IMG/VR virus record: IMGVR_UViG_2693429768_000001
Location: 1-64,000 of that record
DNA: 64,000 nucleotides
Reading direction: 5' to 3' (one strand)
DNA from: a virus
Taxonomy: Duplodnaviria > Heunggongvirae > Uroviricota > Caudoviricetes
The notes under the pieces are model-generated. The model did not search any database, had not been told where the DNA came from, and worked only from the letters and a program-made list of their open reading frames with translations. Numbering within the stretch: the first letter of the stretch is position 1; each line of letters begins with the position of its first letter. Below are positions 46,471 to 57,788 of the stretch, one piece after another. The position numbers were made by a program, and so were the translations under genes.

Positions 46471-46537
46471 ATTGCTCTAATAATTCCATATTTTTAAAAC
46501 GTGATGTACACTCATCACGTTTTTTATTAGAGCAATC
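46471..46537. promoter_or_regulatory. Inverted pair of C1-operator-like sites flanking a bidirectional intrinsic terminator
   Basis: ATTGCTCTAATAATTCC (46471-46487) and reverse TTATTAGAGCAAT (46524-46536) around hairpin AAAACGTGATG-tacact-CATCACGTTTT (46496-46523). Confidence 0.75.
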
Positions 46538-48105: not shown

Positions 48106-48612
48106 TTGAGTATTTTCAATAAACACGCACACCAGGAACGTCCGTATATCGTCATAGTTGATATTGATGGAACAATATCAGAGGCAACTGAAGACAGACT
48201 GCATTTGCTTCCGCCACCAGGTAAAGGTGCATTAACAAAGGACTGGAACGAGTTTAATCTCGCCTGTGACACTGATACTCCCATAACTCCAGTTATTGAT
48301 ATTGTGCGCCAGTTATTTAACGTTTACACGGTCTGGTTTGTAACCGGGCGCTGTGAGATCGCAAGGGATAAAACACGCGCCTGGCTGCGGAAGCACGTAA
48401 CAAACGGGGCTGAGCCTTTGCTATCTATGCGTCCTGCCACCGATGACAGAAATGATGGTCCAGCAAAGATTGATCTCCTTAAGAAAATTGGTCTAAGTAA
48501 AATCGCGTTCGCGCTGGAAGATAAGATTGAAGTGGCGCGTGTTTTCAGGAGGCACGGCGTACTCACATTAATGGTCAGGGAGTATGAAAATGCGCTTCTT
48601 CATCAACAATAA
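48106..48612 (+). CDS. HAD-superfamily phosphatase (DxDGT motif; P1 pap-like position), 168 aa
   Basis: IVIVDIDGTISE nucleophile motif. Confidence 0.6.
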   Translation: MSIFNKHAHQERPYIVIVDIDGTISEATEDRLHLLPPPGKGALTKDWNEFNLACDTDTPITPVIDIVRQLFNVYTVWFVTGRCEIARDKTRAWLRKHVTNGAEPLLSMRPATDDRNDGPAKIDLLKKIGLSKIAFALEDKIEVARVFRRHGVLTLMVREYENALLHQQ

Positions 48613-48628
48613 TTGCTCTAATAAATCT
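48612..48628 (+). promoter_or_regulatory. C1-operator-like site ATTGCTCTAATAAATCT abutting the pap-like stop
   Basis: Read directly. Confidence 0.65.
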
Positions 48629-48710
48629 TGATTTTTAAAACAGAGAAAGTGAAAATAAAAACATGCCGCAAGGCGCGGCATGTATCCAATCAATCACAGG
48701 AGCTGAAAAT

Positions 48711-48797
48711 ATGAACACGGCATTCAAAATCATTATGGCCGCGATCTATTTCTGGCTGTTCTCTATCACTTTTGGCGGCATCGTCGCGCATGGGTAA
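48711..48797 (+). CDS. Candidate 28-aa single-helix membrane peptide
   Basis: RBS AGGAG 8 nt upstream; MNTAFKIIMAAIYFWLFSITFGGIVAHG; below ORF-track cutoff. Confidence 0.35.
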   Translation: MNTAFKIIMAAIYFWLFSITFGGIVAHG

Positions 48798-48807
48798 AGG
48801 GGGATGC

Positions 48808-49389
48808 ATGAAAGGCGAAGTGAAAGAGCGCGGCATGATTTTCAACGATGAGATGGTCCGGGCAATTCTTGGTGGGCATAAAACACAGACTCGCAGGATT
48901 GTTGAAGAAAAATTCTATGGACGGGCAGTGGCCGTAGAGTTGCTTGCTAAGCATTGTCCATATGGTCAACCGGGCGATCGTATTTGGGTTCGCGAAACCT
49001 ACCGGGTACATGGCAAAGCGACGGACGTCGCAACGCTGGTTTATCGCGCAAGCGTGCGTAACTCCTGGACAGAACAAACGCACCGGGTTCCGGTCGAGGT
49101 TTGTAATAAACCAGTATCAGAAAAGTGGACGCCATCAATTCACATGCCGCGCTGGGCATCGCGCATTCTTCTGGAAATTACCAACGTGCGCGTTGAGCGG
49201 TTGAACGATATCAGCGAATGCGATGCAAGGGCTGAGGGCGCACCAACAGAATCGACCCTCATTGGCGATAAGCATTACCCAGGTTTCCGTAGCCTATGGA
49301 AATCAATTTATGGCGAAGATAGTTGGAACGCTAATCCTTGGGTGTGGGTAATAGAGTTTGAGCGTATTCAGGGGGCAACCAGTGAGTGA
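48808..49389 (+). CDS. ASCH-domain protein, 193 aa
   Basis: Start moved to ATG 48808 (RBS AAAGGGGG); MIFNDEMVRAILGGHKTQTRR is a typical ASCH N-terminus. Confidence 0.5.
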   Translation: MKGEVKERGMIFNDEMVRAILGGHKTQTRRIVEEKFYGRAVAVELLAKHCPYGQPGDRIWVRETYRVHGKATDVATLVYRASVRNSWTEQTHRVPVEVCNKPVSEKWTPSIHMPRWASRILLEITNVRVERLNDISECDARAEGAPTESTLIGDKHYPGFRSLWKSIYGEDSWNANPWVWVIEFERIQGATSE

Positions 49390-49642
49390 GTCAAAATGCC
49401 AAATTAATGGCAACAAGATAGAACCGTGCGCGGCGTTGGCACAATCCCTGGAGCATGACGCTGAATACACGACGCGAAAAGGTCTGCTGAAATACAAAAT
49501 CTATAACCATGAATTAATTCATTCACAAGACCTGATCATGCTGCGGTCTGGTGAATTTTCTAAATCGCCTATTCGAGTTTCATTTTGCCCGTTCTGTGGT
49601 GAAAGTCTGAAAACGTGGGAAGCGGAGGCAACCAGTGAATAA
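49382..49642 (+). CDS. Small Cys-containing protein, 86 aa
   Basis: GTG 49382 after RBS AGGGGG; CPFCGESL motif. Confidence 0.4.
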   Translation: MSESKCQINGNKIEPCAALAQSLEHDAEYTTRKGLLKYKIYNHELIHSQDLIMLRSGEFSKSPIRVSFCPFCGESLKTWEAEATSE

Positions 49643-50279
49643 CCGCTTTTACATGATGTGCTTGCGTGAAACTGTGGGTAATAACGCCTCATTCCATTGC
49701 CATAACGGCAATGGTTACAGTTCTGATATCGATCGCGCACATGTTTACACGCTGGAAGAAGCCCAAAAAGCCTGGAATTGTGGGCGAGATATCGATCAGC
49801 CTGTTTGTGCCGATAGTGTGGATGCAATGGCTGTGTGGCACGTTGATTGCCAGTACATCCCTACAGAAAGCCTGATTGAGTCAGATTGCACTGCGTATGT
49901 GGCCTACAAAAAAGGTAGCTGGAACGGCAACGATGTTTACTGGCTTCAACACGGTGGATTGCCAACAGATGACTTCAGTAAAGCGACCATCTTTAGCGTC
50001 GCCAACAAAAACGAACCAGGAATAGTTTGGTTGCCATTTTCCATTGCTGATGCAGCAATGCGTCGGACGTTCAATATCAATAACTTTAACCGCAGAACAA
50101 TGGTTCAGGGCGCAGGTTTGGTCATGCCTGACTGGTTGGAAGAGCAGAACAGAAGAAAGAAGTCGCGAAGCGGGAAGGTGCGTTGGAATTGTCCGCATTG
50201 CGGAAAAATAACCTGGCAGTACAGCCCATATGATTTTGAAGGCTGTAGTGATTACAACTGTGAAGGATGGCGAGAATGA
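49635..50279 (+). CDS. Hypothetical protein with C-terminal zinc ribbon, 214 aa
   Basis: GTG start after GGAGG; CPHCGKITW...CSDYNCEGW. Confidence 0.45.
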   Translation: MNNRFYMMCLRETVGNNASFHCHNGNGYSSDIDRAHVYTLEEAQKAWNCGRDIDQPVCADSVDAMAVWHVDCQYIPTESLIESDCTAYVAYKKGSWNGNDVYWLQHGGLPTDDFSKATIFSVANKNEPGIVWLPFSIADAAMRRTFNINNFNRRTMVQGAGLVMPDWLEEQNRRKKSRSGKVRWNCPHCGKITWQYSPYDFEGCSDYNCEGWRE

Positions 50280-50968
50280 CAATTGACTATCAGGTACTGC
50301 GTGAGGCGGCAGAAAAGGCAACACCAGACGAATGGGTCGCATTTATTTCGACGGAGACTGGTACTTATGCGGTGCACACGCCCGGTGATGAACGATGTGA
50401 AGACGTTATCAAATGGACCGGCTTTGATGGACAGAAAAATGCAGAGAACAACGCTCGTCATGTTGCCGCGTTCAACCCAAAGGTTGCACTGGAGCTGCTT
50501 GGTGAAATTAAGTGCCTGGAGGACACAAATATTGATGCTATGTGTCGAATTGCAGAGCTTGAGACTAATCTCGCGGCGCTGGTGGCAGAGAACGCCGGGC
50601 TGAAACACGCAATGGCCGTAACTCTTGAGCATGTGTCGGTCACGGATGCAGGGCAGGCCGGAGTTGCTGCAATGATTATCAACGATGCCCTGCACCACAG
50701 CGAAACTCCAGCTACCGATGCTTTTCTAGCTGAAGTGAAGACTGAAGCACGCAAGGAAGGCGCTTATTTTGTGGCGAACAGAATGTTGGCAGCCTGGAAA
50801 GCTGGTTTTATTGATGATACTGCGAAGAACGCTGCGGATATTGCCCGGATGATTCTTACCTCTACTGAGTTTATGGCCAATGCGCCGGAAGGCGATTTTG
50901 ACCGTTCATTCTCTGATGGCGTTCTCGAAGATATCGCCGAACAGCTTCGTAAAGGAGTCATCCAATGA
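50276..50968 (+). CDS. Hypothetical protein, paralogue 1 of IDYQxLRExAEK family
   Basis: Start at ATG 50276 overlapping previous stop; N-terminus MTIDYQVLREAAEK. Confidence 0.45.
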   Translation: MTIDYQVLREAAEKATPDEWVAFISTETGTYAVHTPGDERCEDVIKWTGFDGQKNAENNARHVAAFNPKVALELLGEIKCLEDTNIDAMCRIAELETNLAALVAENAGLKHAMAVTLEHVSVTDAGQAGVAAMIINDALHHSETPATDAFLAEVKTEARKEGAYFVANRMLAAWKAGFIDDTAKNAADIARMILTSTEFMANAPEGDFDRSFSDGVLEDIAEQLRKGVIQ

Positions 50969-51672
50969 GCAAGATTGATTATCAAAAGCTTCGTGAAATC
51001 GCTGAAAAAACAAAAATTGCTGGTGAAGCACCTGTAATGCCTTTCGATCAGCGAATTAATGCGCTTAACGATTTTATGAAGCACTTTTCGCCAGATATCG
51101 CGCTGGCATTGTTGGATGAACGGGAAAGAAACCTGCAATACATCAAAAGCCGCGATCAGGAGAACGAGGATATTGCGCTAACGGTAGGGAAGCTGCGTGT
51201 TGAGCTTGAGGAAGTAAAACAACACGCTGAAGAATTATCAGAAACCAACGCTGTTCGTAACCAATGGCGGCCAGATATTTGCCCAATAACCGGACGTGCA
51301 TTTTTTATGTGGATTGAGCATCCGACATTAGGAAATGTGCCGACGTACGGTGGCCCATTAGACAGTTACACCATTCCAACAAAGGACGGTGACGGTGAGT
51401 TTTCATGTGAGCGTTACGATCATGATTTTGGCGGTTGGGTAGAAAGCGAATGTCTTGGGTTATATCTGATTGATGATAGAGAACAATGCAGGGTCTACGA
51501 ACTGGAGGAACGCGTTAAGGAACTGGATGCTCGGGAAATAACGCTCCCGGAACGTAGCAGCATGCTTCATCGAACAGATTTTCACGATGATTACCAAACG
51601 GTAATGGCATACAAAGTTTCTGAAGTCATCGATGCAATCCGCGCTACTGGCATTCGCATCAAAGGAGAGTGA
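50965..51672 (+). CDS. Hypothetical protein, paralogue 2 of IDYQxLRExAEK family, 235 aa
   Basis: RBS AAAGGAG; N-terminus MSKIDYQKLREIAEK. Confidence 0.45.
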   Translation: MSKIDYQKLREIAEKTKIAGEAPVMPFDQRINALNDFMKHFSPDIALALLDERERNLQYIKSRDQENEDIALTVGKLRVELEEVKQHAEELSETNAVRNQWRPDICPITGRAFFMWIEHPTLGNVPTYGGPLDSYTIPTKDGDGEFSCERYDHDFGGWVESECLGLYLIDDREQCRVYELEERVKELDAREITLPERSSMLHRTDFHDDYQTVMAYKVSEVIDAIRATGIRIKGE

Positions 51673-51673
51673 T

Positions 51674-52189
51674 ATGGCGCTAACACACCGCGAACTCTGT
51701 CAGATTGCGTACAAGTTCCTTAAGCGCAACGGGTTCAAGGTTTGTTTTCATGACCGCTTTATAGCTGTAACCAGTACCGGAGAACAGCCAGATGCTATGG
51801 GATTCAGAAATTCAGCATCATGCCTGATAGAGGCGAAGTGTTCTCGTGCTGACTTGTTGGCAGATAGAAAAAAGCGTTTTCGTAAAAATCCGTCTCTTGG
51901 AATGGGCGACTGGCGATTCTTTATTAGTGAGCCGGGAATTATTTCAATTGAGGATTTACCACCTGGCTGGGGATTACTTCACGTTGTTAACGGAAGAGTA
52001 CGGAAAGTACATGGGTGGCCCAAGGGTAATTGCTGTTGGGGTAATCCTGACGATAAGCCATTTACTGGAAATAAGCAGGTTGAATGCGATTACATGTTAT
52101 CTGCATTAAGGCGCATGGAGTTGAGAGGGCACCTTAATGAAATATATGACGGTGTAATTGTTAATAAGAAAGAAGGAAACGCGGCATGA
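51674..52189 (+). CDS. Putative PD-(D/E)xK-fold nuclease-like protein, 171 aa
   Basis: Start ATG 51674 (RBS AAAGGAGAG); EQPDAMGF...CLIEAKCS motif. Confidence 0.4.
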   Translation: MALTHRELCQIAYKFLKRNGFKVCFHDRFIAVTSTGEQPDAMGFRNSASCLIEAKCSRADLLADRKKRFRKNPSLGMGDWRFFISEPGIISIEDLPPGWGLLHVVNGRVRKVHGWPKGNCCWGNPDDKPFTGNKQVECDYMLSALRRMELRGHLNEIYDGVIVNKKEGNAA

Positions 52190-52572
52190 TCACTATTACC
52201 AAAGAGCGACTACTGACAATCAAGCAGTGGCGCGAAACATACGGACCTGATAGCAACGTTGTACTGCCAGCAGAAGAAGCGGAAGAACTGGCGCGGATTG
52301 CGCTGGCATCACTGGAAGCAAAACCAATAGGTGCATTCCACATTGCAGAACAGCAAGTTGACGGCACAAGTGACTACCTCAAGGATGGAGAATGGCCTAT
52401 TGATAATGGAATTATTGAGGTCTACGCCGCTCCACCCGTTCCAGTAGTACCGGAAGAAAAACCAATGCCTAATCCTCTTAGCATGTACGCGGTTGATGCT
52501 GTTGCCGCTATTGCAGAGGTGAGAGGCTGGAATGCCTGCCGCGCGGCTATGCTTCATGGGAAAGGAAAGTGA
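52186..52572 (+). CDS. Hypothetical protein, 128 aa
   Basis: N-terminus shares LARIaLASLEA block with the 301-aa protein at 53005. Confidence 0.4.
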   Translation: MITITKERLLTIKQWRETYGPDSNVVLPAEEAEELARIALASLEAKPIGAFHIAEQQVDGTSDYLKDGEWPIDNGIIEVYAAPPVPVVPEEKPMPNPLSMYAVDAVAAIAEVRGWNACRAAMLHGKGK

Positions 52573-52573
52573 T

Positions 52574-52795
52574 ATGGCTAACTCATTACTTGAAACCTGC
52601 AACAACTGGCAGATTCAGAGGGCGGAGATTTTATCTCGCAATCCAGATATGGCAATGACAATCGATAATCTGGATACGCTAATTGAACGTACCGTGCGTT
52701 CTGCAATTGATATAGCACGTCGAGTTGACTGGGATTTCAGAGAAGCGGAGCGGCTTGCTAAAGAGCAGGAGAAAGCAGCGGGTAAAGGAGACTGA
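52574..52795 (+). CDS. Small hypothetical protein, 73 aa
   Basis: ATG 52574 after RBS AAAGGAAAG. Confidence 0.4.
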   Translation: MANSLLETCNNWQIQRAEILSRNPDMAMTIDNLDTLIERTVRSAIDIARRVDWDFREAERLAKEQEKAAGKGD

Positions 52796-52796
52796 T

Positions 52797-52994
52797 ATGG
52801 ATAAAAACACCACTGCTTACTGGAATCTGTCACTTGATACCGAATGCCCAAAATGCGGTCACAATTTCGATCTGCTTTGTGATGCTGATTTCTGGGAGTT
52901 TTCTGGAGCTAAACAGGCATGTGAAGAAATAAAAGGTTACGAAACATGCTGTCCAGAATGTAACCATGAATTTAAAACAGATTTCGTGTATTGA
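52797..52994 (+). CDS. Small zinc-ribbon protein, 65 aa
   Basis: ATG 52797 after RBS AAAGGAGA; CPKCGH...CCPECNH. Confidence 0.45.
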   Translation: MDKNTTAYWNLSLDTECPKCGHNFDLLCDADFWEFSGAKQACEEIKGYETCCPECNHEFKTDFVY

Positions 52995-53004
52995 GGCATA
53001 ACAA

Positions 53005-53910
53005 ATGACCACTATTACCAGAGAACAGGCACAGAAAATTATTGAAGCAGCCGATGAGGTTATTAGTGCGCTGGCCGGAACTAACGAGGATGTTCACCCT
53101 GGTAGCGATAACATGCTACGCCTGTGGGATGACCTGAATGACCGTTACGCGCCGCCGGAAGTTGTGCGTGAGCTGGCGCGTATCGTGCTGGCATCGCTGG
53201 AAGCAGAACCAGTTGCTTATATTTTCAAACATCCGGCCGGGAAATTATTCTGGGCTTTAACGGATGAAAGCAATAAAGAGCAAGCGGACGTTATTCCTGT
53301 TTATGCTGCCGCGCCTGCGTCGGTTGTGCCGGATGATGCATCAGGGGCGCTTGCTTATGCTTACAAAGAGCTTACGCCTGAGATTATGCGCGGTCATATC
53401 GCTGTATTCGAGCGATATGGAATAGCCCCAAACGATAGCATTACCACAATTCAGGCACTGCGAATCGCGCTGGATGGCATAGAGCGGAGCGACGCCATGC
53501 TTCATGGTGCCGAAACTGTAAGCCAAACTTACAAGTTGCCTCCCCTGTCATCCAGCGAAGTAAACGACGCGGCATGGAAATTACACAACATGCTGACTGA
53601 ACACGGCCTGCTAAATGGGCGTCAGTTCAACAATCTGAAAGGTTGCTTCTATGAGGCATTAAAGGTCGCAATGCGCAACTATCCGGCAACTCCGGATAGT
53701 TGGATAAGCTGTAGTGAGCGAATGCCGGATACCAAAACAGCCGTTCTTGTTGCCGTGGAGTTTGACAGGAAAGGTGACTGGCGAATGAAATGGGCGACTT
53801 ACATCCCGGGGCATCCTGACGCTAATGATGGGTGGATAATTCCTGGTGCGTCGTGGAAACCGTCACACTGGATGCCGCTACCAGAACCGCCGCAGGAGGT
53901 GAATCAATGA
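53005..53910 (+). CDS. Hypothetical protein, 301 aa (lambdoid early-region type)
   Basis: ATG 53005 after GAGG. Confidence 0.45.
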   Translation: MTTITREQAQKIIEAADEVISALAGTNEDVHPGSDNMLRLWDDLNDRYAPPEVVRELARIVLASLEAEPVAYIFKHPAGKLFWALTDESNKEQADVIPVYAAAPASVVPDDASGALAYAYKELTPEIMRGHIAVFERYGIAPNDSITTIQALRIALDGIERSDAMLHGAETVSQTYKLPPLSSSEVNDAAWKLHNMLTEHGLLNGRQFNNLKGCFYEALKVAMRNYPATPDSWISCSERMPDTKTAVLVAVEFDRKGDWRMKWATYIPGHPDANDGWIIPGASWKPSHWMPLPEPPQEVNQ

Positions 53911-53990
53911 GCTGGCCTGAAGCATTCACCACGGTAGGAATTGTGATGGCGGCAGCACTGGGTTTGTATTCAATTTGTCGCTGGTGGTAA
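53907..53990 (+). CDS. Candidate 27-aa hydrophobic peptide
   Basis: ATG overlaps previous stop (ATGA); RBS AGGAGGT; MSWPEAFTTVGIVMAAALGLYSICRWW. Confidence 0.35.
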   Translation: MSWPEAFTTVGIVMAAALGLYSICRWW

Positions 53991-53992
53991 CG

Positions 53993-54226
53993 ATGGGAAA
54001 AATAACTTTTGTAGTCGAATTTGAGGATGGCAAAGAGCCACCTGTTAGCGCCAATCTTGATGTTGCTGGTGGCAGGCTTGTTTCGGTTCTATTTGGTGAC
54101 TACCGAGATGATTTCTTCCAACCAGAAGAAGTTGATGTAGTGCGAGAAGCATTAAATGAGCTAAGTGTTGATAACGATGATGCTCATGCGGAAATCATCA
54201 AAAAAATGGAATTGCTAACTTACTAA
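53993..54226 (+). CDS. Small acidic protein, 77 aa
   Basis: ATG 53993; in frame with track ORF 53975..54226. Confidence 0.4.
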   Translation: MGKITFVVEFEDGKEPPVSANLDVAGGRLVSVLFGDYRDDFFQPEEVDVVREALNELSVDNDDAHAEIIKKMELLTY

Positions 54227-54275
54227 ATTATTAATTTGTAGTGCCATCATCTATAACACCGATAGGAATTGAACG

Positions 54276-54407
54276 ATGTCAAAAATGCCCAAAATAGATG
54301 TTTTTATTTTCTCAGCAATTGTTGGCTTTGGTTTTACTGCTGGAGTGCAGTTTTGTATTGCGTGGGGAAAAATTATCAACTACCTATGGAGTTGTTTTAT
54401 TCAGTGA
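54276..54407 (+). CDS. Candidate 43-aa membrane peptide
   Basis: RBS AGGAA; MSKMPKIDVFIFSAIVGFGFTAGVQFCIAWGKIINYLWSCFIQ; competes with the N-terminus of track ORF 54298..54708. Confidence 0.3.
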   Translation: MSKMPKIDVFIFSAIVGFGFTAGVQFCIAWGKIINYLWSCFIQ

Positions 54408-54414
54408 GGTAAGT

Positions 54415-54708
54415 ATGTGGAGAGGTAATAGTCATGGCAGAAGCCAGATGATACTTACCGAATATAAGCTAGACCACAAAACCAATAAATCACGTTCAGT
54501 ATATTTGCTCCGGCACAATAGCCGCGTAAGGAATACCGTGCTGGAGCAAAACCTGACCGTTGAAATGGATAATTTTGGGAACTTCAAGCCAACAATTGCG
54601 CTTGATGATTTCCCGCGTGGTTTAAGCGAAAGAGAAGCAATGCTGAAATTAGCAGAATGGCTACAAAGATTAAGCATTGCTATTGAAGATAACTGGTCTG
54701 AACCTTAA
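54415..54708 (+). CDS. Hypothetical protein, 97 aa (track ORF 54298..54708 with later start)
   Basis: ATG 54415 after RBS GAGGT. Confidence 0.4.
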   Translation: MWRGNSHGRSQMILTEYKLDHKTNKSRSVYLLRHNSRVRNTVLEQNLTVEMDNFGNFKPTIALDDFPRGLSEREAMLKLAEWLQRLSIAIEDNWSEP

Positions 54709-54714
54709 ATTTAT

Positions 54715-55089
54715 ATGATGACACTAAAACATTTTCTTGACCGCCCATTATGGGCGGCAGCCGCAGGCTATGACTTTAATTATATGGATTGCATGTCTTA
54801 TACCGCCAATGCATACGACTATTCCTTCAGTCTGCTGCTTAATTCTTTAAGAATATTGCCGCAAACAGAAGTTGGAGAGCTTCATTTATGGCTATTGGGC
54901 TTTATCGCGGCTGGAGTTGGTATTGCTGTATGGCCTTTTATTTTCTGGCTGGTGGCTGTTGTAGTGTGGTTTAAGTGCAAGACGTACCGGAGAAAGTATT
55001 TCTTAGGTGATGGAATGACTGATATTGCCAAAATGAACATTGAAAAATGGACTAAGGAATGTGAAAAGAAATGGCGCAAAAAGAAATGA
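54715..55089 (+). CDS. Membrane protein, 124 aa
   Basis: Hydrophobic LWLLGFIAAGVGIAVWPFIFWLVAVVVWF; Lys-rich C-terminus. Confidence 0.45.
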   Translation: MMTLKHFLDRPLWAAAAGYDFNYMDCMSYTANAYDYSFSLLLNSLRILPQTEVGELHLWLLGFIAAGVGIAVWPFIFWLVAVVVWFKCKTYRRKYFLGDGMTDIAKMNIEKWTKECEKKWRKKK

Positions 55090-56003
55090 CCAGAATCACT
55101 GAAGAGCGTATATCAGAGATTATTTCCCGTATCGAAATGTATGGTCACGGTGCTGGATATACGGCAGATGAAGTATTGGCACTTGCCCAAATGGCTTTGG
55201 CGGCTTGCAAAGATGATAAAAAAATGAAGTTTATCGACTTGTTAGTGAAGGAACTGCCTAAGTGCGGCGGGTGGCCTGATGGAATGAGTTATTGTTACCT
55301 ACCCAGTGTCAATTTAATGGCACCATGCGCGACTTTTGCTTTTGGCTCAGACCACAAAAAAGACACTTTCTTTGGGCGCAATTTTTGTTGTGAGATTGAG
55401 CTTCCAATTGGTGACCTTGATAGCGATGAATACCAGTCAGTTGTCACTCGCGAACAATACGAATCAGCTCTCATAGCGTCGCAGAAAGTCGAGTTCAATG
55501 GTGATGAACTTGAAAGTAAGACTTACAGGTTGGATTTTGGGCAATGGCTGGAACAGCAACGCGGGAAAATCGATGTGGACTGTGGTTGTGTGTCCACTGA
55601 AACATTCATGCACTGGCTGCGGGTAGCTTACGAGGCTGGCAACTATCCGGATATTCCGGATAGTTCGGTGCCAGCACCAGGAAAGGGCGTCACCGGTGAA
55701 CGTATCCGAATTAAGCCGCATGTTTATCGCGAACTGGTTAACCGTCTCCACGATACAGCGATCAAGTGTGCTGGCACCCAGCAATTACGAGAAAGAATTA
55801 GCCGTGTTTTGGGCGACGTTATTACACCAGATCATCATACACAAGCCGAGAAAAGTGGCCTGGAAAGGTGTCACCTTGAGGCGGCATTAAACATTAAGCC
55901 GGGGCATACGCTTGGCATTATTGATGCACTATTGGTTCATAAGATGGCCAGGGCTTTATTGCCGCTGGTGGATGCTGGCGATACAAGCGAGGGTGAAGTA
56001 TGA
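55086..56003 (+). CDS. Hypothetical protein, 305 aa
   Basis: ATG 55086 overlapping previous stop (ATGA). Confidence 0.4.
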   Translation: MTRITEERISEIISRIEMYGHGAGYTADEVLALAQMALAACKDDKKMKFIDLLVKELPKCGGWPDGMSYCYLPSVNLMAPCATFAFGSDHKKDTFFGRNFCCEIELPIGDLDSDEYQSVVTREQYESALIASQKVEFNGDELESKTYRLDFGQWLEQQRGKIDVDCGCVSTETFMHWLRVAYEAGNYPDIPDSSVPAPGKGVTGERIRIKPHVYRELVNRLHDTAIKCAGTQQLRERISRVLGDVITPDHHTQAEKSGLERCHLEAALNIKPGHTLGIIDALLVHKMARALLPLVDAGDTSEGEV

Positions 56004-56362
56004 GAGTTGCAGATCACATCAAACACCTTGAAAGAATTATCGAAAACGGTGAACTCTTAAGAGATCAGATGAGACGCACGGCAGAAGTCAGAGAGGCGAT
56101 AATCCGCAGTCAGGCTGGTAAATTAAAGCAATTATCAGAGATTAACGCGCTATACAAGAACAGACGTAACCGGGCGGCGCTGCGGCTTCAGAAAGCACGT
56201 AATGAAATTAAATTGGTGGAGGCAAAACTGAAAAAACAGATTCAGCGTTACGATCAGCAAGATGCTTTTTATGCCGCCATCAAGGCGGCTGCTAATGAAA
56301 TAGGCATCTGGAAGTTGCTGGTGGAGAAAGCAAAGACGAAGTTAAATGCCAACGAAAGCTGA
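56000..56362 (+). CDS. Coiled-coil protein, 120 aa; last gene of the early operon
   Basis: ATG 56000; Lys/Arg/Glu-rich heptad-like sequence. Confidence 0.45.
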   Translation: MRVADHIKHLERIIENGELLRDQMRRTAEVREAIIRSQAGKLKQLSEINALYKNRRNRAALRLQKARNEIKLVEAKLKKQIQRYDQQDAFYAAIKAAANEIGIWKLLVEKAKTKLNANES

Positions 56363-56436
56363 ACTACAGGTACCCACCAGCACATACAGAAAATGATTGT
56401 TTCCACATCAAGGAGATTTTAATGTTTCACTGAACA

Positions 56437-56574
56437 TTAAGTAAGCCAGTGCATAATTCCATTTTTTACTGACCTTAAAAGCAAAATCAAAACGATGATG
56501 AGGATGATCGCCAGAATCTGGCTAATAACAGGCGCATCTAAAAATGCACTCAGGAACTGAAAAAAAGCAGTCAT
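56437..56574 (-). CDS. Candidate 45-aa hydrophobic peptide (possible type I toxin-like small membrane protein)
   Basis: Manual translation MTAFFQFLSAFLDAPVISQILAIILIIVLILLLRSVKNGIMHWLT; RBS AAGGA; AT-rich intergenic region next to nested inverted repeats. Confidence 0.3.
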   Translation of the reverse strand: MTAFFQFLSAFLDAPVISQILAIILIIVLILLLRSVKNGIMHWLT

Positions 56575-57023
56575 TAAGGTGGTTCCTTGTCAAATGTAAA
56601 GGAGCACTTGCTCACGTTGACGTAGAAACCCAACCCCTATATAGTTGGATTCGGTGAAAGAAAGTCGTTAACGTGAGCTTACGGCACATGTTTTCGGAAC
56701 AACATCAGGGAACGGCTAATTCCTTGATGCGGATGGGGTCTGTAATGCAGACCCTATCTATTAACGTCATGATTGCATCTCAAATTTTCTCCTTATCTTC
56801 ATTAATCAAAATTCATTTCATTTGTGAAACATCACAATATTTAGAAAATGGCCCTCTTGCAAGTGCATAACTTTGTGGATAAATCAGGAAGAAAAAAGTT
56901 GATTCTGCGCACGGCAAGGCAGATAAGCTGTGCACAAAAATCAATGGGAAAAGAAAAAAAATTAAAAGTTACTTTGCTGGTTAAATAATAGTCGTTACGC
57001 AATTGTTCTGGATGGGATTTGAT

Positions 57024-57275
57024 ATGCACGATTGGAATATTGCAGCTAAAAGTCAGGAAGAACGGGATAAGGTTAACGTTGATCTGGCTGCCAGCGGTGT
57101 GGCGTACAAAGAGCGATTGAACATACCTGTCATAGCTGAACAGGTAGCCCGCGAGCAACCAGAGAATCTGCGCACCTATTTCATGGAACGGTTACGGCAC
57201 TATCGGCAGTTAAGCCTCCAGTTGCCAAAAGGGAGCGATCCGGTGTATCAGAACGAGGATGCACCAAAAAAATAA
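57024..57275 (+). CDS. hot: Homologue of DNA polymerase III theta subunit (HolE-like), 83 aa
   Basis: [50 protein letters not shown] collinear with recalled E. coli HolE. Confidence 0.8.
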
Positions 57276-57360
57276 CGGCAAGATGGGGGAGAAATGTGAT
57301 TAGCCCCCAGCGTGGCGCGCCTACAAACCCCGCTTTCACAAACTATGCCTTTTCAATGTA

Positions 57361-57380
57361 TACTGTATGAATAAACAGTA
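57361..57380 (+). promoter_or_regulatory. LexA (SOS) box TACTGTATGAATAAACAGTA upstream of humD
   Basis: CTGT-N8-ACAG read directly, 19 nt before the humD ATG. Confidence 0.8.
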
Positions 57381-57398
57381 TCATTGAGGTAAAACGCT

Positions 57399-57788
57399 AT
57401 GGGCTTCCCTTCTCCTGCGGCGGATTATGTTGAAAGCCGAATTTCTCTTGATCAGCAGATAATTAGACATCCTTCAGCGACCTACTTCATGCGGGCAGCT
57501 GATAGCCATCACCGTGAGGGAATATTGCAGGGTGCTTTGCTGGTGGTTGATTCCTCGCTTACTCCGGTTGATGGTTCTCTGCTTGTGTGCGCTATGGAGG
57601 GTGAATATCGCATAAAGAGATACAGGAAGTATCCGCGCCAGCACCTGGAGGATTTAAGCACCGGGAAGAAAGAGGCGTTACCAGTAGATGACGATGGATA
57701 CACGGGCAGTAATGCTGTTTTTGGTGTGATCACTCATGTCATCAATGATGCCCGAAGTGGGGAATTTGATGATTGTCCGGTTATTTAA
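57399..57788 (+). CDS. humD: UmuD-like SOS mutagenesis protein, 129 aa
   Basis: LexA box upstream; size and position match recalled P1 HumD. Confidence 0.8.
   Translation: MGFPSPAADYVESRISLDQQIIRHPSATYFMRAADSHHREGILQGALLVVDSSLTPVDGSLLVCAMEGEYRIKRYRKYPRQHLEDLSTGKKEALPVDDDGYTGSNAVFGVITHVINDARSGEFDDCPVI

Follow-up and report, generated by a model that had tools for sequence, protein, structure and literature searches.

A probable complete form of the C1-controlled early operon between pap and hot in a P1-like phage-plasmid

The 64,000-nucleotide (nt) stretch of DNA analysed here (positions 1 to 64,000 of IMG/VR record IMGVR_UViG_2693429768_000001; hereafter ‘the window’) is part of a P1-like phage-plasmid and matches SJ46, P7, and P1 in pieces at 95–99% identity. 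Directly 3′ of its pap gene and 5′ of its upfM-hot-humD-phd-doc segment, the window carries a run of 18 plus-strand open reading frames (ORFs), numbered g01 to g18 (48711–56362). This run is probably the complete natural form of a C1-repressed, dispensable early operon, known in P1 by its operator Op88 and its gene pmgT and in P7 as ‘hea’, that has been shuffled in cassettes and is partly held in common with lambda-like phages. A preliminary description of the window, made from the sequence alone, had presented the run as ‘expanded’ beyond the canonical P1 gene set. The most parsimonious reading reverses that relation: long versions of the operon are the norm, the window carries the common long form, and reference P1 is an outlier, a deletion derivative in which pmgT and pmgU are the scar of an ∼6.4-kilobase (kb) loss.

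The operon begins at a C1 operator, ATTGCTCTAATAAATCT (48612–48628, plus strand), with one mismatch to the consensus, which corresponds to Op88/OpmgT of P1 and Op(hea) of P7. Within the 121 nt around it, 120 are identical to the P1 region annotated as OpmgT (formerly Op88), bearing out the designation ‘early operon’ that the run had been given. In the P1 annotation, OpmgT overlaps two predicted sigma-70 promoters, and in the P7 annotation the site is the predicted regulator of hea operon expression. Transferred from P1 by alignment, the predicted promoters would lie at 48613–48656 on the plus strand, P2pmgT with its −35 element at 48613–48618 and its −10 element at 48636–48641, and P1pmgT with TTGATT (48628–48633) and GAAAAT (48651–48656) at the respective positions. 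Eleven C1-operator-like sites (up to three mismatches) are found in the 64-kb window vs. 0.24 expected by chance; they include a divergent overlapping pair at 32535–32562 and a pair at 46471–46536 that is the counterpart of the P1 pmgR operators. A consensus scan detected no plus-strand sigma-70-like site inside the operon, and a terminator scan detected nothing convincing inside it or after g18. In the operon leader, just 3′ of the predicted −10 element, stands a perfect hairpin with a 10-bp stem, ACATGCCGCGCCTTGCGGCATGT (48661–48683), that is kept in P1 and P7. Its sequence fits an intrinsic terminator in the minus-strand direction only, and it overlaps the ATG that SJ46 uses for an annotated ‘membrane protein’ of 44 amino acids (aa). 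A scan of 46–58.5 kb against Rfam at E ≤ 0.1 returned no RNA family.

From the operator and from what is established for P1, C1 bound at 48612–48628 would keep the overlapping promoters shut in the plasmid-prophage state, and infection or induction would then yield early transcription of the operon as a single ∼7.7-kb transcript. The geometry of the gene junctions suggests that translation of the 18 abutting ORFs would mostly be coupled, at stop/start junctions that overlap or are 1 nt apart. Nine of the 17 junctions are overlaps (six ATGA, two of 8 nt, and one of 19 nt), three have a 1-nt spacer (TGAtATG), four have gaps of 2–10 nt, and one has a gap of 49 nt; the dense plus-strand run with overlapping junctions that had been reported is thus real.

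After the operator, reference P1 carries just pmgT, pmgU, and pmgV, and it has six genes between pap and hot, so the window does carry more genes than P1, as had been suspected. In local alignment, P1 matches the window to 48899 and again at 49132–49240 and then jumps to 55628. Its pmgT gene (NC_005856, 84488–85557) is a chimera. Residues 1–232 of PmgT are an allele of g02 (48808–49389; 193 aa, EaE-like/ASCH-like), the first large gene and 5′ anchor of the operon, with which they share 47% aa identity; plasmids p266917 and U2501 both carry a 246-aa allele to which this part is 98.7% identical at the nucleotide level. The last 77 PmgT residues come from the 3′ part of the g17 gene (55071–56003; 310 aa, EaA-like, with an orthologue named eaA in JL22), read out of frame, and PmgU equals g17 residues 200–310, the last 111 aa, at 94.6% identity. 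At the joint, AATCCCTGGGT meets TACGAGGCTGG with 1 nt of microhomology, and the ∼6.4 kb lost starts 15 codons short of the end of the ASCH/EaE-like gene and reaches about codon 186 in the EaA-like gene. The relatives inspected carry undamaged copies of both parental genes, which makes deletion in P1 the most parsimonious explanation. When a probe of 181 nt spanning the fusion point was searched, full-length matches (100% identity) came only from five natural plasmids and three P1 laboratory records; elsewhere among the plasmid and phage matches listed, the alignment breaks off exactly at the joint or earlier.

Reference P1 is viable without the ∼6.4 kb of operon interior. This natural deletion implies that the interior genes are dispensable: without them, P1 in laboratory hosts can grow lytically, form lysogens, and be maintained as a plasmid, in agreement with knock-down by CRISPR interference (CRISPRi), in which pmgT, pmgU, and pmgV proved nonessential (PMC10695390). 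In other respects, the P1 and P7 operons resemble that of the window: they follow pap, have the same operator/promoter region, and start with an ASCH/EaE-like gene. The last P1 gene product, PmgV, is 100% identical to that of g18 (56000–56362; 120 aa, coiled-coil, phrog_4403), the 3′ anchor, and P7 shares g01–g04, the 3′ half of g06, g07, the N-terminal module of g08, and part of g17–g18 at 95–99%. What sets P1 apart is the short operon left by the deletion.

The order of the operon ends, with pap and the operator on the 5′ side and pmgV on the 3′ side, is kept in P1, P7, SJ46, JL22, and five plasmids, and the number of genes between these ends ranges from 3 to ∼21 (3 in P1, 8 in P7, 14 in SJ46, and 18 in the window). 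In the sampled relatives, the operon is 4.4–9.1 kb long with 8 to ∼21 genes; long versions, present in some 1,290 plasmids, typically measure 5.6–9 kb. We searched 72,556 plasmids, 50,697 phages, and 5,426 complete Escherichia coli genomes. Approximately 1,290 plasmids from E. coli, Salmonella, and Klebsiella, mostly non-mobilizable and, where inspected, of type IncY, also match the queried stretch piecewise at 95–99%. No record in any of the three collections covers more than 90% of 48700–56400; the best are plasmid p266917_2_02 (90%) and one more E. coli plasmid (88%). The exact gene arrangement of the window operon is absent from these collections. Parts of it are matched in 3,487 of the complete E. 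coli genomes, on the chromosome for most. The guanine-plus-cytosine content of the block is indistinguishable from that of the backbone.

Variability at this locus is already on record. Venturini et al. (2019; PMC6906374) listed the region from pap to lxr (RD-5) as one of five variation hot spots, and a 2022 survey of 77 P1-like elements (PMC9603915) named pmgT-humD ‘highly variable region 8’ and described a series of gene clusters in place of pmgT in JL22. The GenBank record of P7, in which the operon is annotated as ‘hea’, notes similarity to P22 Ead. The locus as a variable region is therefore published, and the present allele is a new combination.

The composition of this allele points to exchange of single genes at recurrent junctions. 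The preliminary description had noted three nearly identical initiation contexts and suggested cassette-like shuffling. Two of the three contexts stand where they had been placed, at 51661 and 52561, and the third lies at 52784 rather than 52781. They are copies of what we call linker A (consensus AAAGGAGAnTGATATGG), in which a Shine–Dalgarno sequence stands before the stop codon of one gene and the start codon of the next: AAAGGAGAGTGATATGG at 51661–51677 (junction g06/g07), AAAGGAAAGTGATATGG at 52561–52577 (g08/g09), and AAAGGAGACTGATATGG at 52784–52800 (g09/g10), all on the plus strand. A second plus-strand sequence, linker B (consensus GGAGGCAACCAGTGA), likewise combines a Shine–Dalgarno sequence with the upstream stop and downstream start and occurs as GGCAACCAGTGAGTGA at 49374–49389 (g02/g03) and GGCAACCAGTGAATAA at 49627–49642 (g03/g04). 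Both linkers, with three copies of A and two of B, are confined to the operon within the window, and the degenerate linker A 17-mer, found three times in the 64 kb, did not occur in 100 shuffles.

Beyond the window, linker A was found at over 120 loci in a scan of IMG/VR. In enterobacterial contexts, the sequences it joins belong to at least eight families on the upstream side and at least four on the downstream side, in many different pairings, and the unrelated upstream proteins all end in K-G-E/K/D because linker A encodes their ends (g06, e.g. ends in GIRIKGE, its final codons being supplied by the linker). Linker B is found elsewhere before g04 after unrelated genes and before Ead/Ea22 genes in several elements, and upstream genes read through it in two different frames. 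Plasmid pA17EC0026-3 has precisely lost g03, and a lone linker B copy there connects g02 with g04.

The linker A sample was chosen by the motif itself, and two further samples were drawn unbiased by it. Among 80 IMG/VR loci selected solely for encoding g07, homology on the left ends at 51655/6 in 41 and at 51634–51651 in 30 more, and the left end lies within 40 nt 5′ of the g07 start codon in 71 of the 80. On the right, homology ends 14–22 nt past the g07/g08 stop–start overlap in 27 of the 80 and at the end of the LARIALASLEA block of g08 (52316–52330) in 43. The g07 neighbours in this sample fall into 18 upstream and 22 downstream clusters, in 38 combinations. For loci selected for g04, the left end is at 49624, inside linker B, in 61 of 79, and the right end is at 50310–50327, just past the Ead/Ea22 N-terminal block, in 45 of 80. 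The clustering of breakpoints in these 160 independently sampled loci, the varied partners of both linkers, and the exact loss of g03 uphold the suggestion of cassette-like shuffling. The same data support the Ead/Ea22 N-terminus and the LARIALASLEA blocks as likely intragenic crossover points at which C-terminal domains are swapped. In three Salmonella proteins of 240–245 aa, an Ead/Ea22 N-terminal region continues in frame into a g07-like nuclease-fold domain, apparently as a result of read-through or stop loss in linker A, in which case the junction can also yield new fusion proteins.

An alternative to which we give a minority chance holds that the repeated junctions are convergent solutions to translational coupling, that the mosaic arose by random illegitimate recombination followed by selection, and that the linkers have no role in recombination. 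A GGAG Shine–Dalgarno core and a stop/start pair are indeed present in both linkers, the P1 deletion is itself illegitimate with its 1 nt of microhomology, and ∼70% of phage mosaics bear no trace of flanking homology (PMC3945230). Convergence, however, does not readily account for identity over 15–18 nt that includes positions irrelevant to ribosome binding, stop, or start (TGAtATGG; GGCAACCAGTGA), nor for the lack of the linker motifs at every other tight junction in the window. Linker B, moreover, serves two reading frames of the upstream gene; homology ends cluster 6–11 nt 5′ of the Shine–Dalgarno sequence instead of being spread over intergenic sequence and terminal codons; and the exact loss of g03 leaves one linker copy behind.

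We therefore retain exchange by recombination, probably in cells that also carry lambdoid prophages, at two short junction sequences and two conserved N-terminal modules (Ead/Ea22 and LARIALASLEA). Rad52-like phage recombinases are known to recombine short, diverged homologies (PMC3945230). The arrangement has an obvious resemblance to integron arrays, in which promoter-proximal single-gene cassettes with short repeats between them are precisely gained and lost. It differs from them in that no integrase-like ORF lies in or beside the operon, that attI and attC-like imperfect palindromes are lacking, and that the repeats are 15–18-nt translation-initiation junctions overlapping coding sequence; exchange in the window would presumably proceed by homologous recombination.

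The likely partners in this exchange can be named. Four segments of the operon (49624–50737, 51091–52326, 53170–53538, and 53675–53903) are 95–98% identical to the Shiga toxin 2c (Stx2c)-converting phage 5044, which encodes, in window order, the products of g04 (96% aa identity), g05 (N-terminal 157 aa), g06, and g07 (99%) and a DUF551 protein. In phage 5044, these genes lie 3′ of cI, N, and erf and 5′ of int and an attachment-site repeat, i.e. in the early-left ‘exo-xis’ region; in phage Lyz12581Vzw, the same genes lie between gam-recT-exo-ssb and xis-int. An IS3-family insertion sequence (IS) is present in the exo-xis region of 5044 (8291–9501 of the examined stretch), with the g06 homologue on one side and, on the other, a 62-aa cassette gene located before g07. 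The flank 5′ of the block shared by U2501 and 5044 was considered as an IS end and proved to be the 3′ end of this 62-aa gene, the IS3-family element lying further upstream. Distant g07 homologues in Morganella and Serratia prophages occupy the nin region, between P and Q, where their neighbours are NinB, NinG, Lar-like, HNH, and Dam genes. These positions suggest that the accessory family moves among the early-left and early-right lambdoid regions and the P1-like operon. Two further links did not hold: a pairing of g07 with the DUF551 gene as a two-gene system is not conserved in the Morganella and Serratia homologues, and a relation to yfdP-yfdT of E. coli K-12 CPS-53 (a g11 orthologue is named yfdT in one plasmid) returned no similarity in tblastn at E ≤ 1e-3.

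The remainder of the operon has a different distribution. Genes g12–g18 (53906–56362) are found at ≥95% identity in P1-like phages only, and g02 and g03 have relatives at just 77–85%, in P22-like and lambdoid phages. The operon thus appears, from these matches, to be a P1-like-specific frame (g01–g03 and g12–g18) around a lambdoid-type centre (g04–g11), the latter probably drawn from the early accessory pool of lambdoid exo-xis/‘ea’ and nin regions. A synteny comparison with P1 and with lambdoid early regions, which the preliminary description had proposed, thereby returned a short P1 operon and a pool common with exo-xis.

The exo-xis region is the closest known counterpart in several respects: it is early, repressor-controlled, dispensable, and mosaic, it consists of small abutting ORFs, and its shared genes (g04, Ead/Ea22, g07, and DUF551) stand in 5044 order at 95–98% nucleotide identity. 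Ea22 proteins likewise have a conserved N-terminus and a coiled coil with swappable C-terminal domains and are mosaic in Stx phages (PMC10834534). The two systems are nonetheless distinct. Exo-xis is controlled by CI and N at PL, whereas the window operon has P1 C1 at a single operator; the window genes lie between pap and pmgV with no adjoining exo, bet, erf, xis, or int; and their centre is framed by P1-like-specific genes. The characterised lambda genes orf60a, orf61, orf63, orf73, and ea8.5 were not found in the window operon. The nin region, for its part, resembles the window in its strings of small dispensable genes and is the home of the distant g07 homologues and of DUF551 genes; it differs in being an early-right operon with the core set NinB, NinG, and Q.

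The products of the operon would be dispensable accessory proteins rather than parts of the virion. By analogy, their most likely function is the modulation of host physiology and of the lysis–lysogeny outcome early in infection, with counter-defence as the second candidate. In lambda and phi24B, the exo-xis region has an effect on lysogenization and induction (PMC3824215, PMC7093339), and Ea22 is prolysogenic (PMC3824215, PMC7093339, PMC10834534). That the operon is instead chiefly a counter-defence island (anti-restriction or anti-abortive-infection), first expressed after DNA entry and turned over in an arms race, seems to us the less likely course, with a minority chance. Early, repressor-controlled, small genes that vary among close relatives and are dispensable in the defence-poor K-12 background would suit such a role. 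So would an adenine methyltransferase in the JL22 allele, a PAPS-reductase-domain gene in NZ_AP045803, a DNA methyltransferase and a PAPS reductase in the exo-xis region of Lyz12581Vzw, and the Lar, Dam, and HNH genes adjoining the distant g07 homologues. In the profile searches run, however, no gene of the window operon matched a known anti-defence protein, methyltransferase, or defence component, and the experiments on homologous regions concern lysis–lysogeny and host physiology only (PMC3824215, PMC7093339).

A prophage-expressed module for defence or superinfection exclusion, protecting the lysogen, is improbable: the locus is a variable hot spot of a temperate element, with a nuclease-fold protein (g07) and several small membrane proteins among its products, but an operon whose promoter is overlain by the C1 operator should be silent in the lysogen, the scan predicts no promoter inside it on the plus strand, and none of the ten products scanned has a PADLOC match above noise. 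A morphogenetic role in head or tail assembly, as implied by the names pmgT, pmgU, and pmgV, by the ‘putative morphogenetic’ annotations in P1 and SJ46, and by the same label on the neighbouring pmgL-pmgS operons, is effectively excluded, as PmgT is a fusion scar and PmgU a gene fragment, plaque formation is intact under CRISPRi of all three genes (PMC10695390), the operator is an early C1 operator with no late promoter in front in the P1 annotation, the lambdoid homologues lie in early non-structural regions, and gene content varies among phages with the same virion genes.

Several points weigh against the account of a C1-controlled, cassette-shuffled early operon given above. For this element, we infer promoter activity, the single transcript, and translational coupling from sequence. 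Many of the sampled IMG/VR loci are near-identical prophages, and the counts are of sequences, not of independent events; the ends of BLAST alignments place breakpoints to ∼10 nt only. At 15–18 nt, the linkers are shorter than experimentally tested homologies, and they double as ribosome-binding sites, so that selection on translation could add to their similarity. No Red/Erf-type recombinase of P1-like elements is found in the operon region, and exchange would consequently need host RecA or enzymes of a co-resident prophage. As for function, NCBIfam gave no significant match and hence no lead for any of the 18 products, and a sequence search of the Protein Data Bank with g02, g04, g06, and g07 found nothing below E 0.1. 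PADLOC, run on ten products (g02–g08, g11, g17, and g18), returned only noise, namely two weak partial matches, to BrxC (E 0.008) and PglZ (E 1e-4), in coiled or low-complexity sequence.

The individual genes, all on the plus strand and with start codons refined against annotated relatives, are small, and 16 of the 18 products match a PHROG family, each of them labelled ‘unknown function’. Confidence that an ORF is a gene is lowest for the two that match none: g01 (48711–48797), a 28-aa hydrophobic peptide in place of which SJ46 has the 44-aa membrane protein in its annotation, and g12 (53907–53990), a 27-aa hydrophobic peptide that is a possible gene and is unannotated in the 99%-identical plasmid U2501. 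The product of g02 (phrog_874, E 2e-86) had been called an ASCH-domain protein. That name is borne by homologues in the NCBI annotation pipeline and in other phage records (as ASCH or RNA-binding), and the Pfam match itself (PF04266) is weak, with E 0.17 and 13 bits against a 21.2-bit cut-off; the gene is also 77% identical in nucleotides to a P22-like phage region annotated as ‘EaE’. Three zinc ribbons had been proposed as well. Those of g10 (52797–52994; 65 aa, phrog_4173), with two CxxC motifs (CPKC...CPEC), and of g04 (49635–50279; 214 aa), with four conserved C-terminal cysteines, are clear. The case is weaker for g03 (49382–49642; 86 aa, phrog_4030), the cassette between the two linker B copies and a small cysteine-containing protein with one CxxC plus two more cysteines and a possible zinc site.

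Genes g05 (50276–50968; 230 aa) and g06 (50965–51672; 235 aa) are the paralogues recognised earlier by their common IDYQxLRExAEK N-terminus; they are Ead/Ea22-like (PF13935, E 6e-24 and 7e-18, respectively) and differ in their C-terminal parts. The product of g07 (51674–52189; 171 aa) holds up as a PD-(D/E)xK-fold protein, as had been proposed: its modelled core is alpha-beta-beta-beta-alpha-beta with a D...(D/E)xK motif, and it is a putative nuclease. The LARI(A/V)LASLEA block noted in two genes is present in g08 (52186–52572; 128 aa, phrog_60 and phrog_3323), where an N-terminal ‘MxTITKE...LARIALASLEA’ module is followed by a short unique C-terminus, and in g11 (53005–53910; 301 aa), where a LARIVLASLEA module is joined to DUF551 (PF04448, E 8e-21, residues 232–297). 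The two products share 41% identity over 64 aa, and phrog_60 is matched by g08, g11, and also g17. Between them, g09 (52574–52795) encodes 73 aa (phrog_10585, E 3e-42).

The P1-like-specific 3′ block opens with g13 (53993–54226; 77 aa, phrog_3876, E 2e-52), followed by g14 (54276–54407; a 43-aa hydrophobic protein, phrog_5525), g15 (54415–54708; 97 aa, phrog_1258, E 1e-49), which is annotated in p266917 and U2501, and g16 (54715–55089; 124 aa, phrog_2638, E 1e-62), a membrane protein with a hydrophobic core in its sequence.

Outside the operon, the gene upstream (48106–48612) is pap, and its assignment as an HAD phosphatase is confirmed by a Pfam match to HAD_PNKP (E 3.5e-12). Convergent to the operon end, a conserved 45-aa hydrophobic ORF lies on the minus strand (56437–56574); SJ46 and several plasmids list its product as a hypothetical protein. 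A hot-like ORF (57003–57275), humD (57399–57788), phd, and doc are all found 3′ of the operon. The hot-like ORF is followed almost directly by humD, as in plasmid U2501, and the window lacks lxr (57275–57399), which in P1 is a LexA-regulated gene lying between hot and humD.

For annotation, the locus is a routine variable one that does not need a new category. The names pmgT and pmgU designate deletion artefacts; they should be neither propagated as ‘morphogenetic’ nor used as the baseline for calling other alleles expanded. De Paepe et al. (PMC3945230) reported no recent mosaics between the P1 and lambdoid lineages of temperate phages, and the P1 of that survey was the reference genome, which lacks the operon stretch that natural P1-like elements have in common with lambdoid phages at 95–98%. 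P1-like phage-plasmids are known to exchange many genes with other elements (PMC10879196), a study in which we did not find the pap-pmgV operon singled out. A bolder proposal, which we find tenable while leaning somewhat against it, is that the operon is a dedicated cassette-exchange platform: portable junctions and N-terminal ‘adaptors’ would serve as its joints, P1-like and lambdoid prophages would continually trade single early genes through it, reference P1 would be a natural knock-out, and at least one lost gene would be host-directed or act in counter-defence. If so, research on P1 would for decades have relied on a phage naturally lacking ∼15 early genes, and the candidates for such an activity would be the nuclease-fold protein, the protein of unsolved fold encoded by g04, or the two Ea22-type proteins. 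The significance of the operon would rise with experimental linker-mediated exchange or with a host-directed or counter-defence activity of one of its early proteins.

These early proteins are present in most E. coli genomes. Including as they do a predicted PD-(D/E)xK-fold protein and a protein that is confidently modelled and appears to have no solved relative, the products are reasonable candidates for screens for host takeover or counter-defence. The two recurrent junctions and two N-terminal modules provide a testable model for the movement of single-gene cassettes between temperate phages, and the operon itself is a route of gene flow that connects P1-like phage-plasmids, at high identity, with Shiga-toxin and other lambdoid prophages.

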